Below, one piece after another: positions 8,565 to 15,989 of a stretch of DNA of 26,280 nucleotides (its first letter is position 1; the number at the start of each line of letters is the position of its first letter). The DNA comes from Chloroflexota bacterium (GTDB taxonomy: Bacteria; Chloroflexota; Limnocylindria; Limnocylindrales; CSP1-4). The notes beneath the pieces are model-generated. The model saw only the letters and a program-made list of their open reading frames with translations, searched no databases and was not told where the DNA came from. Where the stretch lies: positions 1 to 26,280 of the forward strand of contig JAXDKY010000075.1 of assembly GCA_034666885.1 (NCBI GenBank), given 5' to 3'. The translations under genes were made by a program, and so were the position numbers.

Positions 8565-8601
8565 CCGCGGCCATCAGCCCGCGGCCGTCAGCCCTCGGCC
8601 A
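8560..8601. repeat. Three tandem 14-bp repeats containing the kinase stop codon
   Basis: TCAGCCCGCGGCCA / TCAGCCCGCGGCCG / TCAGCCCTCGGCCA. Confidence 0.9.
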
Positions 8602-9607
8602 CCGACGTCGCCACGGCACGGGCATCCCACGCCGCCAGCGCCTTGCGGACCTTCGCCCCGATCGCGGCATCCACGATCTCGCCGCGCAACGCATCGAGCC
8701 CGAGCAGGGCCGCTCCCGCGACCGGCGGCGCATCCGAGCGCACGAGGGTCGCCCGCGGCGCGATGGCCTGCACCCCGGCCCGGATCCTCGAACGGAATGT
8801 GACGTCGGGCGTCCGGAAGACCCCGCCGCCGAGCACGATCTCGGGATCGAGCCGGGTGAGGTGGAGCCGCCGGAGCATCGCCCCGGCCATCGCCACGACC
8901 TCGTCGGCAAGCCGGTCGACGACGGCTCGGGCCGCGGCGTCGCCGTCGATCGCTGCCGCGAAGACGACCGGCGCGAGCTCATCGATCCGCCGCTGTTGGA
9001 CCCGGCCGTCGTACATCGCCATCGTCAGCGCATGCGGCGAACCGAGGTCGAAATGGGCGGGCACCGTCTCCTCGAGGATGGTTCGCGGCCCACGTCCGTC
9101 GCGGGCCCGCACGGCGGCCGCCAGGCCCTGCCAGCCGACGTCCGTGCCGCCGCCCCAGTCACCGGAAATATCGCCCAGCGCGTCGAGCCGGGCCGTCCGC
9201 CCGTTCGGGGCGATCCCGGCAGCGTTGACGCCGTGGCCGCAGATGACGACGACGCCCCAACCTCGATCGGTGCCGGCGCGCAGGGCCGCGAACGAGTCGT
9301 TACGGAGCAGGTCGGTCCGGGCGAATCCCCGCGCCGCGAGTCGCGCCGTCAGCAGCCGGATGTCGCCCCGGGTGTCGGCGCCAGCCAGGCAGTACACGCC
9401 GACGTCCGCTCGGTCGGGCGCGCCGGCGCCGGCGGCGGCGTGCGCCTCGGCGACCAGGGAGGCCAGCCGCTCCATCCCGATATCGACCCCGACCGCCTGG
9501 TGAGAGCTCGTCGGTCCGTGGACGGCCGCCAGCAGGCCGCCATCCTCGGCGACGAGGGCGACGTCGGTCTTCGAATTCCCGCCGTCGACGGCGAGGACCA
9601 GCTTCAC
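8588..9607 (-). CDS. BadF/BadG/BcrA/BcrD-family sugar kinase (N-acetylglucosamine/MurNAc kinase-like)
   Basis: LAVDGGNSKT phosphate-1 motif, CLAGAD, NDSFAAL, ICGHGVN, SGDWGGG, VLGGGVF, PVAGAAL; GTG 9607 overlaps the deacetylase stop (GTGA). Confidence 0.9.
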   Translation of the reverse strand: MKLVLAVDGGNSKTDVALVAEDGGLLAAVHGPTSSHQAVGVDIGMERLASLVAEAHAAAGAGAPDRADVGVYCLAGADTRGDIRLLTARLAARGFARTDLLRNDSFAALRAGTDRGWGVVVICGHGVNAAGIAPNGRTARLDALGDISGDWGGGTDVGWQGLAAAVRARDGRGPRTILEETVPAHFDLGSPHALTMAMYDGRVQQRRIDELAPVVFAAAIDGDAAARAVVDRLADEVVAMAGAMLRRLHLTRLDPEIVLGGGVFRTPDVTFRSRIRAGVQAIAPRATLVRSDAPPVAGAALLGLDALRGEIVDAAIGAKVRKALAAWDARAVATSVAEG

Positions 9608-10200
9608 GACAAGGCGTCCAGCCGTACGAACTCGCCGCCGCCCGCTCGCACCCGGTCGATGAGGGCGGGGAGGGCGCGTCCCGTCGCGGTGGTCCACGGA
9701 TGGAGCAGGATCACGGCGCCGTCGCCGTGGCGCAGGGCCGCATCGGCGGCCTCGGTCGCCAACCGCCGGCCCGTCGCGCTCGACCGCCAATCGAGCCCGT
9801 CGACGTCCCAGCGCGTCTCGCGGTAGCCGAGCCGTTCGAGCGCCCCCAGCACCGCCGGATCGTCGGTCCCGGCACCGAACGGACAACGGAACCAGGGTCG
9901 CGGATCCTGCCCCGTCGCCCGACGGATGGCCCGTTCGGCGGCCCGCACGTCCGTCGCCAGCCCCCTCGCGCTCAGCAGCGGCATGCGGACATGGTAGTGC
10001 GAGTGATTCCCGACGAGATGCCCGCCGTTCGCGATCGACCGCGCGAGGCTCGGGAACGCCTCGGCCCAGCGGCCCTGGACGAAGAAGGAGGCCGTCGTCC
10101 CGGTCGCGGCGAGCGTGGCGAGCACCCGTTCCGTGCCGCCGGGGCGATGGGGGCGGTCGGGATGCTCGGCGTCGAAGGTCAGCGCGATGCGGACCGTCAC
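9604..10200 (-). CDS. Polysaccharide deacetylase, NodB/CE4 family, cytoplasmic single domain
   Basis: ALTFDAEH (motif 1 variant), GNHSHYH, FRCPF, DVDGLDW, ILLH; no signal peptide. The real gene is the last 198 aa of the 625-aa track ORF; GTG 10200 overlaps the permease stop. Confidence 0.88.
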   Translation of the reverse strand: MTVRIALTFDAEHPDRPHRPGGTERVLATLAATGTTASFFVQGRWAEAFPSLARSIANGGHLVGNHSHYHVRMPLLSARGLATDVRAAERAIRRATGQDPRPWFRCPFGAGTDDPAVLGALERLGYRETRWDVDGLDWRSSATGRRLATEAADAALRHGDGAVILLHPWTTATGRALPALIDRVRAGGGEFVRLDALS

Positions 10201-14654: not shown

Positions 14655-14678
14655 ATTGCTGATAACGTTATAAGCAAT
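14655..14678. promoter_or_regulatory. 24-bp near-perfect palindromic operator between the divergent gntR operon and GH4 gene
   Basis: ATTGCTGATAACGTTATAAGCAAT (one mismatched pair), an AT-rich patch in a very GC-rich context, flanked by a perfect TTGACA on the minus strand (14686-14681). Confidence 0.8.
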
Positions 14679-14720
14679 GGTGTCAAGCCCGGCTCGCCGG
14701 GCGGGCGGCCCGGAGGGCGG

Positions 14721-15989
14721 ATGGGAACCAAGATCACGGTCGTTGGCGGCGGCAGCACGTACACGCCGGAACTCGTGGACGGCTTCGTACGGCGCTCGGA
14801 TCGCCTGCCGATCGACGAGCTCGTCCTGCTCGACACCGACGCCGACCGACTCGATATCGTCGGGGGGCTCGCCCAGCGCATGCTCGACCGCCAGGACTGG
14901 ACAGGGCGCCTCCGCCTGACCGGCGATCGCGATGCCGCCCTCGACGGCGCCGACTTCGTCCTCTTCCAGCTGCGGGTCGGTGGCCAGGCCGCCCGTCTTA
15001 TCGACGAGACCGTGCCGCTCGAGTTCGGGGTGATCGGGCAGGAGACCACCGGCGCCGGTGGGTTCGCCAAGGCGTTGCGCACGGTCCCGGTGGTGCTGGA
15101 GCTGGCGGAGCTCGCCGCTCGCCGGGCAGCACCCGACGCCTGGATCGTCGACTTCACGAATCCGGTCGGGATCGTGACCCAGGCGCTCATCGATGACGGG
15201 CATCGGGCGATCGGCCTGTGCAACGTCGCGATCAACCTCCAGCGCTCGATGGCCACCGAGTTCGAGGTCGAGCCGGAGCGGGTCGCGCTCGAGCACGTCG
15301 GCCTCAACCACCTCAGCTGGGAACGGGCGGTCCGCGTCGACGGCGTCGATCGCCTGCCGGAGCTCCTGGAGCGCGAGTCCGAGAAGTTGGCCGAGGACTT
15401 CCGCTTGCCCCTGGACCTCTTCCGGACGATCGGGGCGATCCCGTCCTACTACCTGCGCTACTACTACCTCACCCGGACGGTCCTCGAGGAGCAGCGCGCC
15501 GGGCACACCCGAGCGGCCGACGTCATGGACATCGAGGCGCGTCTGCTCGAGCTGTACAAAGACCAGTCGCTCGCCGAGAAGCCGGCCCTGCTCGACAGCC
15601 GCGGCGGGGCGTTCTACAGCGAGGCGGCCGCTCAGCTCATCGCGTCGCTGCACGATGGCGCCGGCGACGTCCAGGTCGTCGACGTGCGCAACGAGGGCGC
15701 CATCCCGGACCTGCCCGATTCCGCCGTCGTCGAGATCCCGGCGCGCATCGATCGCGACGGTGCCCATCCGCTGCCCCTGGCGCCGCTCGCGCCCGAGCAG
15801 CGCGGCCTGGTCCAGGTCGTCAAGGCGTACGAGGAGCTGACGGTCGCCGCGGCAAAGAGCGGTGACCGCGATGTGGCGGTTCGGGCGCTGACGGTCAATC
15901 CCCTGGTCGGAGGCGACGTCGCGCGACCGCTGCTGGAGGCGATGCTCGAGGCTGGACGCGCACACATGGGCAGGTTCGCGCCGGCCTGA
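14721..15989 (+). CDS. 6-phospho-beta-glucosidase, glycoside hydrolase family 4 (NAD+/Mn2+-dependent)
   Basis: VGGGSTYTP NAD-binding motif, GQETTGAGG, FTNP, GLCN (Cys), GLNH (His), IPSYYLRYY, RGGAFYS; GGAGGG RBS before ATG 14721. Confidence 0.95.
   Translation: MGTKITVVGGGSTYTPELVDGFVRRSDRLPIDELVLLDTDADRLDIVGGLAQRMLDRQDWTGRLRLTGDRDAALDGADFVLFQLRVGGQAARLIDETVPLEFGVIGQETTGAGGFAKALRTVPVVLELAELAARRAAPDAWIVDFTNPVGIVTQALIDDGHRAIGLCNVAINLQRSMATEFEVEPERVALEHVGLNHLSWERAVRVDGVDRLPELLERESEKLAEDFRLPLDLFRTIGAIPSYYLRYYYLTRTVLEEQRAGHTRAADVMDIEARLLELYKDQSLAEKPALLDSRGGAFYSEAAAQLIASLHDGAGDVQVVDVRNEGAIPDLPDSAVVEIPARIDRDGAHPLPLAPLAPEQRGLVQVVKAYEELTVAAAKSGDRDVAVRALTVNPLVGGDVARPLLEAMLEAGRAHMGRFAPA

Follow-up and report, generated by a model that had tools for sequence, protein, structure and literature searches.

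A candidate phosphotransferase-independent pathway for a small amino-sugar glycoside in a Chloroflexota bacterium, with a GH4 glycosidase predicted to be supplied by a BadF-family kinase

The window analysed here (26,280 nucleotides; contig JAXDKY010000075.1 of GenBank assembly GCA_034666885.1, positions 1 to 26,280, forward strand) comes from a soil Chloroflexota bacterium (Limnocylindria, Limnocylindrales, CSP1-4) and carries at 8588-15989 a cluster of genes for an ATP-binding cassette (ABC) importer, a CE4/NodB deacetylase, a BadF-family sugar kinase, a GntR/HutC-family regulator and a GH4 glycosidase. It is read, at roughly even odds (about 0.5), as a self-regulated divergon for the catabolism of a small beta-linked glycoside of an amino sugar, which would be imported unphosphorylated, phosphorylated by the kinase, de-N-acetylated by the CE4 enzyme and split by the GH4 enzyme; the main doubt on this full mechanism concerns the identity of the sugar and the position of the kinase step, before or after cleavage. 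The substrate is most likely a chito-oligosaccharide, either N,N'-diacetylchitobiose or a chitosan fragment that is partly acetylated. An earlier note on this DNA, made from the letters alone, had proposed such a scheme as the Escherichia coli chb pathway rebuilt from other parts; the scheme fits the gene linkage, the protein fusions, the operator, the relatives of the GH4 enzyme and of the regulator, the type of phosphotransferase system (PTS) found and the NagA and NagB-II-like genes that would handle the products, all of this support being comparative. The scheme is supported in part, and CE4 is not a universal partner.

Results and Discussion

Gene cluster and proposed pathway

The minus-strand order gntR(HutC), solute-binding protein (SBP), permease, permease, CE4, BadF kinase was obtained from the listing of open reading frames (ORFs) and a Pfam search; the GH4 gene is divergent on the plus strand and is followed by a class A penicillin-binding protein (PBP) gene. 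The features are as follows:

8588-9607, minus strand: BadF/BcrAD-family sugar kinase, 339 aa; GTG start overlaps the CE4 stop; PF01869, E 6e-21, 75.5 bits (cut-off 31.5).
9604-10200, minus strand: CE4/NodB deacetylase, 198 aa; PF01522, E 2e-23, 83 bits (cut-off 23.1).
10197-11303, minus strand: CUT1-type ABC permease 2 (MalG/UgpE-like), 368 aa; PF00528 (BPD_transp_1); NCBIfam UgpE/GlcU/MalG-like, all under the curated cut-offs.
11300-12247, minus strand: CUT1-type ABC permease 1 (MalF/UgpA-like), 315 aa; PF00528 (BPD_transp_1); NCBIfam GlcT/UgpA/MalF-like, under the curated cut-offs.
12251-13738 (ORF 12251-13795), minus strand: lipoprotein SBP, 495 aa from the likely ATG at 13738; SBP_bac_1, PF01547.
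13792-14586 (ORF 13792-14637), minus strand: GntR/HutC-family regulator, 264 aa from the likely ATG at 14586; PF00392, 72.6 bits, and PF07702 (UTRA), 127 bits.
14655-14678, no strand: palindrome of 24 nt between gntR and the GH4 gene, candidate operator.
14721-15989, plus strand: GH4 glycosidase, 422 aa; PF02056, 161.8 bits (cut-off 23.2), PF11975, 180.5 bits (cut-off 24.1); GGAGG before the ATG.
16083-18932, plus strand: class A PBP, 949 aa; Transgly and Transpeptidase domains.

All eight genes had been placed correctly in the earlier note, as ORFs and Pfam matches confirm; the three GTGA stop/start overlaps that it named (TCAC on the plus strand) were recovered to the base at 11300-11303, 10197-10200 and 9604-9607, and the palindrome that it saw between gntR and the divergent GH4 gene was found at 14655-14678. 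The start chosen for gntR (ATG 14586) agrees with the N-terminus of NagR; the G+C content of the window is 65-77%. In the NCBIfam search no cluster protein attained a curated equivalog cut-off, and the source names of the CE4 and SBP homologues are generic. A promoter/terminator consensus scan of 8300-16300 returned 0 sites of each, with a consensus that may not suit Chloroflexota. As to ABC import, likewise proposed before, the SBP and two permeases are present and the ATPase gene is absent from the cluster; an MsiK-like ATPase is encoded elsewhere in the genome of the window (contig C261; 49% identity to the MsiK-like ATPase of the actinomycete locus L046).

The proposed pathway would proceed in six steps. 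The lipoprotein SBP and the two CUT1 permeases would import the sugar, energised by the MsiK-like ATPase encoded elsewhere; the BadF-family kinase, in place of a PTS, would phosphorylate O6 of the non-reducing residue with ATP; the cytoplasmic CE4 enzyme would strip the N-acetyl group from that residue, the kinase and CE4 steps being conceivable in either order; and the GH4 enzyme would split the resulting glucosamine 6-phosphate (GlcN-6-P) glycoside by NAD+-dependent oxidation and elimination to GlcN-6-P and N-acetylglucosamine (GlcNAc) or glucosamine (GlcN). GlcN-6-P would then enter glycolysis via a NagB-II-like isomerase, and GlcNAc via a kinase and NagA. The HutC-type repressor, bound to the single 24-nt palindrome, would silence both transcription units until released by a sugar phosphate made in the pathway. 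Relatives of the cluster that lack CE4 would take sugars with a free amine or a hydroxyl already at C2. The amino-sugar reading is drawn from the regulator being nearest to DasR/NagR, from a SIS gene embedded in some relatives of the cluster, from NagA and NagB-II-like genes, from GH18 genes in relatives and from the SBP being nearest to UspC.

A bolder version is put forward tentatively. Here the BadF enzyme would be a true chito-oligosaccharide 6'-kinase, the CE4 enzyme would have a rewired metal site and act on the disaccharide as imported or after its phosphorylation, and the whole, with the GH4 enzyme, would be an ATP-driven, PTS-free counterpart of chb with a repressor sensing the phosphorylated disaccharide; the module would have moved horizontally between Chloroflexota and Actinomycetota, and kinase and GH4 would have fused in some lineages.

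Linkage of the GH4 and kinase genes

Loci were selected through the CE4 orthologue. Among 600 candidate stretches a gene for a CE4 relative was present in 466, of which the best 80 were taken. A kinase was counted at ≥40% identity and a GH4 protein at ≥55%; flanks of at least 7 kb upstream and at least 4.5 kb downstream of CE4 (62 of the 80 loci) were regarded as adequate. The kinase gene stands beside the CE4 orthologue in 71/80 loci, and the GH4 gene is present in 60/80; with adequate flanks both are present in 53/62, one only in 3 and neither in 6, Chloroflexota and Actinomycetota being covered. The closest CE4 orthologues (up to 84% identity) belong to Chloroflexota (Limnocylindria/Limnocylindrales and uncultured Chloroflexia), and the host is no actinobacterium; the same gene set occurs in metagenome-assembled genomes (MAGs) of Actinomycetota and in cultured Streptosporangiales, and among cultured carriers of the complete cluster are Nonomuraea longicatena JCM 11136 and Rhizohabitans arisaemae K14-0274.

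The pairing of GH4 with a BadF kinase extends to loci without CE4. In three of these (L094-L096) the GH4 gene is found beside a BadF kinase gene of 50-53% identity; no kinase gene was found near GH4 in a fourth, L093. The importer of L094-L096 is an Opp-type ABC system (SBP_bac_5), with a ROK regulator in L094 and L096, and the Limnocylindrales locus L069 has a carrier of the major facilitator superfamily (MFS); together with the CUT1 ABC system of the window, three importer types thus accompany the pair. Moreover, 13 of the 19 long database relatives of the kinase are single proteins with an N-terminal GH4 part and a C-terminal BadF kinase part (P0244-P0252, P0257-P0260; 598-1027 aa). Four junctions were inspected: P0246 and P0251 have clean in-frame linkers; those of P0250 and P0258 are Arg/Ala-rich and look like frame-shifted read-through, so that some of the fusions may be artefacts of gene calling. 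Linkage and CE4-less loci together point to a constant core of GH4 and BadF kinase, an interchangeable importer, and CE4 as a frequent, optional third enzyme.

An unbiased sample of the phylum (301 genomes, a tally that takes in one unpublished genome, G232) contained GH4 at E ≤1e-40 in 60 genomes, with ≥66% identity to the GH4 protein of the window in 8; a CE4 orthologue lies 4-7 kb from GH4 on the same contig in four of these 8 (G000, G129, G282, G290). In a quick maximum-likelihood tree (IQ-TREE, SH-aLRT support only) 60 CE4-linked and 4 CE4-less GH4 sequences formed one clade (SH-aLRT 99), Chloroflexota and Actinomycetota being intermixed; E. coli ChbF was placed outside it on a very long branch, and the sequences of two cultured Streptosporangiaceae (L027, L029) were nested among Limnocylindria. 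This nesting suggests that the module may have been transferred between phyla.

An actinomycete variant of the cluster (L036, L046, L053, L054, L060, L070, L081) comprises, in this order, GH4, a SIS protein (GlmS-C/NagB-II-like), CE4, the BadF kinase and an MsiK-like ATPase. Its neighbours are genes of a MerR/GyrI-like regulator and of a DegT-family aminotransferase, as well as a csn-like ROK-SBP-permease set that includes a second GH4 gene. The second GH4 protein of the actinomycete MAG loci has 39% identity to that of the window and reads GLCDQ where the latter reads GLCNV.

A second GH4 gene (37% identity to that of the window) was also seen in the genome of the window itself, on contig C273 (L102: 800-5300), divergent from a GntR-family gene and followed by genes of a PfkB-family kinase, an SBP_bac_1 protein and a permease; a similar PfkB-GH4 pair occurs in L095. 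The GH4 genes of these Chloroflexota seem to be regularly paired with a sugar kinase of some family.

GH4 glycosidase, kinase and order of the steps

The nine best solved relatives of the GH4 protein (E 2e-99 to 3e-42) are eight chains named 6-phospho-beta/alpha-glucosidases and one "cellulase IBT99"; matches include 5c3m (E 2e-99), 1s6y (E 1e-97) and BglT 1up6 (E 1e-72). GH4 enzymes acting on non-phosphorylated substrates are more distant (alpha-galacturonidase and alpha-glucosidases, with LplD, AglA and TM0752-type enzymes; E 4e-21 to 3e-14), and identity to E. coli ChbF is 36% over 436 columns. The segments VVGGGSTYTPE, GLCNV and GLNH are matched by the same residues in 5c3m/1s6y and in ChbF; the first is taken to be the glycine motif that binds NAD+, and Cys and His of the other two presumably ligate Mn2+. 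From these alignments the protein is predicted to be a glycosidase of the NAD+/Mn2+ type and of the 6-phospho-beta-glucosidase group. As described in the available part of PMC10628242, such enzymes oxidise C3 with bound NAD+, after which elimination, addition of water and reduction follow; a 6-phospho-hexopyranoside is required by BglT and GlvA, and anomeric configuration is not strict for GH4 enzymes given good leaving groups.

The best solved relative of the kinase is the N-acetylmuramic acid (MurNAc)/GlcNAc kinase MurK (8zo3; E 4e-25), next to which come a hexokinase and human GlcNAc kinase; its N-terminal VDGGNSKTD (phosphate-binding motif DGGxxKT) aligns with IDGGGSKTH of MurK. The order of the steps may be questioned at this point: the GH4 enzyme might cleave the unphosphorylated, possibly deacetylated glycoside and the BadF enzyme might then, NagK-like, phosphorylate the freed GlcNAc or GlcN. 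MurK, human NAGK and hexokinase are all monosaccharide kinases, some GH4 enzymes use unphosphorylated sugars, and the substrate of Streptomyces CsnH/CsnK is "presumably hydrolyzed and phosphorylated", in that order, in the available text of 10.1101/2023.09.20.558697; the GH4-kinase fusion is compatible with both orders. Hydrolysis before phosphorylation is nevertheless judged unlikely, for the GH4 protein is far nearer to the 6-phospho-glycosidases (E 3e-42 or better) than to the non-phospho enzymes (E 4e-21 or worse), relatives already have a separate ROK kinase in a GH3 cluster, and a kinase that produces the substrate of the GH4 enzyme would more readily account for the tight GH4-kinase pairing over three transporter types.

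Palindrome and regulator

The palindrome ATTGCTGATAAC/GTTATAAGCAAT has 11/12 pairs and no spacer; its degenerate form gave 1 site in the window and 0 in 100 shuffles. Of 46 orthologous divergent intergenic regions, 45 contain it with ≤4 mismatches, the number of mismatches in its 24 positions being 0 (16 loci), 1 (14), 2 (8), 3 (5) or 4 (2), in loci whose proteins have drifted to 55-65% identity. It is the sole site at ≤5 mismatches in the genome of the window, and exactly one site per genome was found in 5/5 near-complete relatives. One predicted site per genome argues that the regulator is not a global one, and the palindrome is unlike the dre consensus.

The best solved relatives of the regulator are DasR (Streptomyces; E 4e-39) and NagR/YvoA (Bacillus; E 5e-35), HutC-type proteins like itself. 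Ligand contacts of NagR (T90, R133, R135, S165, Y167; E145, E222, Y228, R211) were taken from the available part of PMC4333415. In the HMMER alignment the phosphate ligands R133, R135, S165 and Y167 and the sugar contacts E145 and E222 are retained, so that the phosphate-holding Arg, Ser and Tyr are common to NagR and the regulator of the window; T90, Y228 and R211 are replaced by Ala, Val and Gly, respectively, in which it differs from NagR. The protein is taken as a local repressor, presumably released by a sugar phosphate, and it may be guessed that the altered effector pocket accommodates a larger, disaccharide phosphate.

CE4 deacetylase and solute-binding protein

Motifs of the CE4 family are TFDD (catalytic Asp and metal-binding Asp), H(S/T)xxH, RxP(Y/F), DxxD(W/Y) and LxH. 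The protein of the window begins MTVRIALTFD, from which no signal peptide is expected; an alignment of 79 sequences shows conservation of motifs 2-5 (HSHYH, RCPF, DGLDW, LLH) and of the first Asp in motif 1, and D10, E12, H13, D15, H66, H70, R105, P107, D137, W138 and H167 are invariant in 24 orthologues. Its AlphaFold2 (AF2) model has an overall pLDDT of 89.7; the top Foldseek matches of the model are compact CE4 esterases/deacetylases (TM ~0.8).

In the SBP the lipoprotein Ala-Cys site (A21, C22) is invariant in 26 homologues; the AF2 model (pLDDT 79.6; residues 1-53 below 50) has a disordered Ala/Ser/Pro linker behind the Cys. Among solved proteins UspC of Mycobacterium tuberculosis, reportedly "specific for amino sugars" according to the title of its paper, comes nearest both in sequence and in fold.

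These two proteins bear on the nature of the sugar. Were the CE4 protein an O-acetyl esterase, an O-acetylated beta-gluco- or manno-oligosaccharide could be deacetylated, 6-phosphorylated and cleaved by the GH4 enzyme as a 6-phospho-beta-glucoside, no amino sugar being involved. Indeed, acetylxylan esterases (2cc0, 7fbw) are the closest relatives of the CE4 protein in sequence as well as in fold, GH4 orthologues of 66-71% identity occur without any CE4, the fold of the SBP resembles binders of cellodextrins and sophoro-oligosaccharides, and the nearest solved GH4 enzymes are named 6-phospho-beta-glucosidases. Set against these are a regulator nearest to the amino-sugar-phosphate sensors DasR/NagR, the GlmS-C/NagB-II-like gene embedded in the actinomycete variant and the top SBP match with its amino-sugar specificity by title; in addition, xylose would offer no C6 for phosphorylation. 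A substrate without amino sugar is considered very unlikely.

Phosphotransferase system and amino-sugar metabolism of the host genomes

The genome of the window (MAG of 2.48 Mb, 449 contigs, 70.1% complete) encodes one PF02378 EIIC protein, which matches mannitol/fructose models and adjoins 1-phosphofructokinase, and two HPr proteins; PF02378 was found in 1/5 near-complete relatives that carry the cluster, and Pfam detected no PTS domain in any cluster protein. The absence of a PTS that had been anticipated therefore applies to the cellobiose/chitobiose type, and four of the five relatives have no EIIC at all; the genome of the window, with its fructose-type EIIC, is not PTS-free. The survey indicates that the cluster works without a cellobiose/chitobiose-type PTS.

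NagA was above the cut-off in 3/5 genomes, the copy in the genome of the window being partial and cut by a contig end. Matches to PF01182 were tried as NagB and rejected, the single gene being a 6-phosphogluconolactonase gene beside OpcA; a NagB-II-like SIS protein of 345 aa occurs in relatives (214 bits, cut-off 430). GH18 genes were present in 4/4 near-complete relatives and GH20 was not found in 5 genomes; a search for GH75 gave 0/5 genomes, control genomes being likewise silent.

In the relative G002 a further cluster (L101, C3:214000-233900, ~6900-15650) contains a ROK regulator, a ROK kinase, an SBP, two permeases, a GH3 gene and a NagB-II-like gene. The GH3 gene adjoins the NagB-II-like SIS gene in G001-G004 (in G001 the GH3 match is in two pieces, possibly by frameshift); its NagZ-like product has beta-N-acetylhexosaminidase as the best match (140 bits, cut-off 207) and no visible signal peptide. 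Such a set resembles the usual route for oligosaccharides of GlcNAc, which would make the GH4 cluster a second route; the latter perhaps serves fragments that the GH3 enzyme cannot open, e.g., with GlcN at the non-reducing end or with mixed acetylation.

Penicillin-binding protein gene and the question of cell-wall recycling

The class A PBP gene behind GH4 had led the earlier note to keep cell-wall recycling as an alternative, in which the substrate would be peptidoglycan-derived GlcNAc-MurNAc, with or without peptide, and the PBP would be functionally linked. The kinase has a MurNAc/GlcNAc kinase as its best solved relative, peptidoglycan deacetylases are found among the relatives of CE4, UspC comes nearest to the SBP, and many Limnocylindria loci have a PBP gene next to the cluster, on one side or the other. 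Yet MurQ (TIGR00274) was above the cut-off in 0/5 genomes (best 35 bits, cut-off 302), and the adjacency of the PBP gene is confined to Limnocylindria and absent from all actinomycete variants; next to the latter are a csn-like set of ROK, SBP and permease genes and a gene resembling that of GlcN-6-P isomerase. In most Limnocylindria loci the PBP gene lies on the GH4 side, and three (L066, L071, L075) have it on the kinase side; both arrangements would be expected if the cluster had simply been inverted next to a PBP gene that stayed in place. Since GH4 catalysis starts at the C3 hydroxyl (available part of PMC10628242), a MurNAc glycone, blocked at O3, would not be cleaved. With no MurQ found and a lineage-specific adjacency, the PBP was rejected as a functional partner, and the recycling alternative, not borne out, is regarded as highly improbable.

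Evidence weighing against the proposed pathway

Several findings sit poorly with the pathway proposed above. The CE4 orthologue is not near GH4 in the other four genomes with a GH4 protein of ≥66% identity (G258, G070, G084, G261). Six Streptosporangiales loci (L025, L028, L030, L031, L032, L034; Microtetraspora, Streptosporangium, Nonomuraea sp.) retain gntR, the ABC genes and CE4 without GH4 or kinase, which shows that CE4 is not strictly dependent on these two. The co-occurrence of GH4, BadF kinase and CE4 genes, which the earlier note had named as a check, was seen in most adequately flanked loci, where kinase and GH4 accompany CE4, and it broke down in half of the closest GH4 genomes of the phylum sample and in these six loci.

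Motif 1 of the CE4 protein is non-canonical (TFDAEHPD), the first Asp being retained and Ala standing at the second position; the loop that contains it (residues 11-20) has a pLDDT of 62, and the CE4 pseudoenzyme BA3943 is among the nearest folds of the model. HMMER places D15 on the canonical second Asp by way of a 4-residue insertion, and the strong conservation points to an active enzyme with an altered metal site. Around the catalytic Cys the GH4 protein reads GLCNVA (5c3m, GLCNVP; ChbF, GVCNIP); the signature of 6-phospho-beta-glucosidases is reportedly CN(V/I)P (Hall, Pikis and Thompson, 2009). The nearest solved relatives of the kinase act on monosaccharides, as stated, and the kinase is under every NCBIfam equivalog cut-off (NagK_SO3507, 48 bits against 370). 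Cellodextrin-, sophorose/sophoro-oligosaccharide- and cycloalternan-binding proteins are almost as close to the fold of the SBP as UspC; with so many oligosaccharide binders close behind, the fold cannot name the ligand. Finally, GH18 was not found in the MAG of the window (70% complete; absences from so incomplete a genome prove nothing), GH46 was not found in 5 genomes, and the GH3/ROK/NagB-II-like route of relatives could already handle diacetylchitobiose.

In the six Streptosporangiales loci CE4 is followed by genes of a GFO/IDH/MocA oxidoreductase and a Zn-dependent dehydrogenase; L030 retains a GH4 remnant of 48 aa. By way of speculation, the NAD-dependent oxidoreductase might stand in for the chemistry of GH4, as the split oxidation/elimination pathway in the available part of PMC10628242 would allow one to imagine. 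These loci also bear on whether the substrate might be a different N-acetylhexosaminide, for example GlcNAc linked to a polyol or inositol, a beta-1,6-GlcNAc fragment or a fragment of the N-glycan core: the two dehydrogenases might act on a polyol aglycone, chitobiose could be left to the GH3 route, and GH4 enzymes are lenient on anomeric configuration given good leaving groups (same source). On the other side, neither dehydrogenase occurs in the variants from Chloroflexota and from actinomycete MAGs, and no particular alternative is positively supported; a substrate of this kind is thought quite unlikely, and a chito-oligosaccharide is preferred.

Other features of the window

The remaining annotated genes are as follows:

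1038-3341, minus strand: FtsH-type AAA protease.
3490-4695, minus strand: beta-lactamase-family protein.
4408-5085, plus strand: MsrA.
within 18608-19756, plus strand: ABC ATPase.
19794-21398, plus strand: molybdopterin oxidoreductase with Ig domain.
21452-22057, plus strand: DUF3090.
23514-26237, plus strand: UvrD-type helicase with HRDC domain.

The Pfam search gave no match for the ORFs 5415-6122, 6200-6673, 21993-22805 and 22866-23510. An ORF for an NMO/FabK-like flavoprotein (6716-7891, minus strand) and one for a KDPG/KHG aldolase (7859-8539, plus strand) overlap by 33 bases head to head, and one start codon was therefore probably called too early; the aldolase gene adjoins the kinase gene in the closest relatives only. 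The last ~110 residues of the class A PBP (16083-18932, plus strand) form a low-complexity tail rich in Pro, Thr, Glu and Ala.

At least half of the sampled words of the window were present in 5 soil metagenome runs from 5 studies. Contigs of soil RNA libraries (two runs) match stretches of the SBP, permease and CE4 genes to 90-97%, two of them bridging the permease-2/CE4 junction; they were rejected as evidence of co-transcription, being contigs of relatives with possible carry-over of DNA, and a contig not being equivalent to a transcript.

Relation to known systems

In E. coli the GH4 enzyme ChbF cleaves GlcN-6-P glycosides, diacetylchitobiose phosphate being first deacetylated by ChbG (available parts of PMC12791066 and PMC9402603). 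The pathway proposed for the window shares with chb the 6-phosphorylation and de-N-acetylation of the non-reducing GlcNAc and the cleavage by GH4. It would differ in having an ABC importer for uptake and a separate, ATP-dependent BadF kinase for phosphorylation, both of which are tasks of the PTS ChbBCA in chb, in a deacetylase of the CE4/NodB instead of the YdjC (ChbG) type, and in a regulator of the HutC instead of the AraC (ChbR) type.

For glucosamine oligomers/chitosan oligosaccharides, the csnR-csnEFG-csnH-csnK cluster of Streptomyces/Kitasatospora combines ABC import with a GH4 hydrolase and a "putative oligosaccharide kinase" (available part of PMC5635096); CsnK is termed a ROK-family kinase and the steps are presumed in the corresponding part of 10.1101/2023.09.20.558697. 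As presented there, csnR-K resembles the cluster of the window in uniting a CUT1 ABC importer, GH4 and a kinase in one regulated cluster without PTS; its regulator is of the ROK family, in contrast to GntR/HutC, and no deacetylase is described for csn in those parts of the two sources. The idea of a PTS-independent combination of GH4, kinase and ABC importer is, therefore, already in print as a proposal for Streptomyces csnR-K.

A precedent for an ATP-dependent kinase feeding GH4 enzymes exists in the beta-glucoside kinase BglK of Klebsiella. BglK is a ROK-family enzyme that acts on glucosides, no N-acetyl sugar or deacetylase being known to be involved. Its 6-phospho-beta-glucosides can be accepted by BglT and GlvA according to the available part of PMC10628242.

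Full-text searches of the literature gave no paper with "chitobiose kinase", "diacetylchitobiose kinase" or "cellobiose kinase", and "oligosaccharide kinase" in that sense for csnK only; among the titles and abstracts seen, none described a GH4/kinase/ABC/deacetylase cluster of this kind. What is new is that a cytoplasmic CE4 protein is proposed to deacetylate and that the constant companion of GH4 is a BadF kinase, fusions included; new as well are the HutC regulator with its single conserved candidate operator, and the distribution in soil Chloroflexota.

Conclusion

GH4 phospho-glycosidases are usually explained by PTS supply, and many soil bacteria, abundant uncultured Chloroflexota among them, are without such a PTS. 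If the proposed pathway is true, a dedicated sugar kinase would be the general partner that enables GH4 enzymes to work behind ABC, Opp-type or MFS importers; disaccharide kinase activity would exist in the BadF family, and a cytoplasmic CE4 enzyme could replace ChbG. A common meaning that can be tested would then stand behind the annotations "multiple sugar transport", "peptidoglycan/xylan/chitin deacetylase" and "6-phospho-beta-glucosidase", and the cultured carriers make the proposed pathway itself testable. For carbon and nitrogen cycling in soil, it would add an extra route for the turnover of chitin and chitosan fragments.

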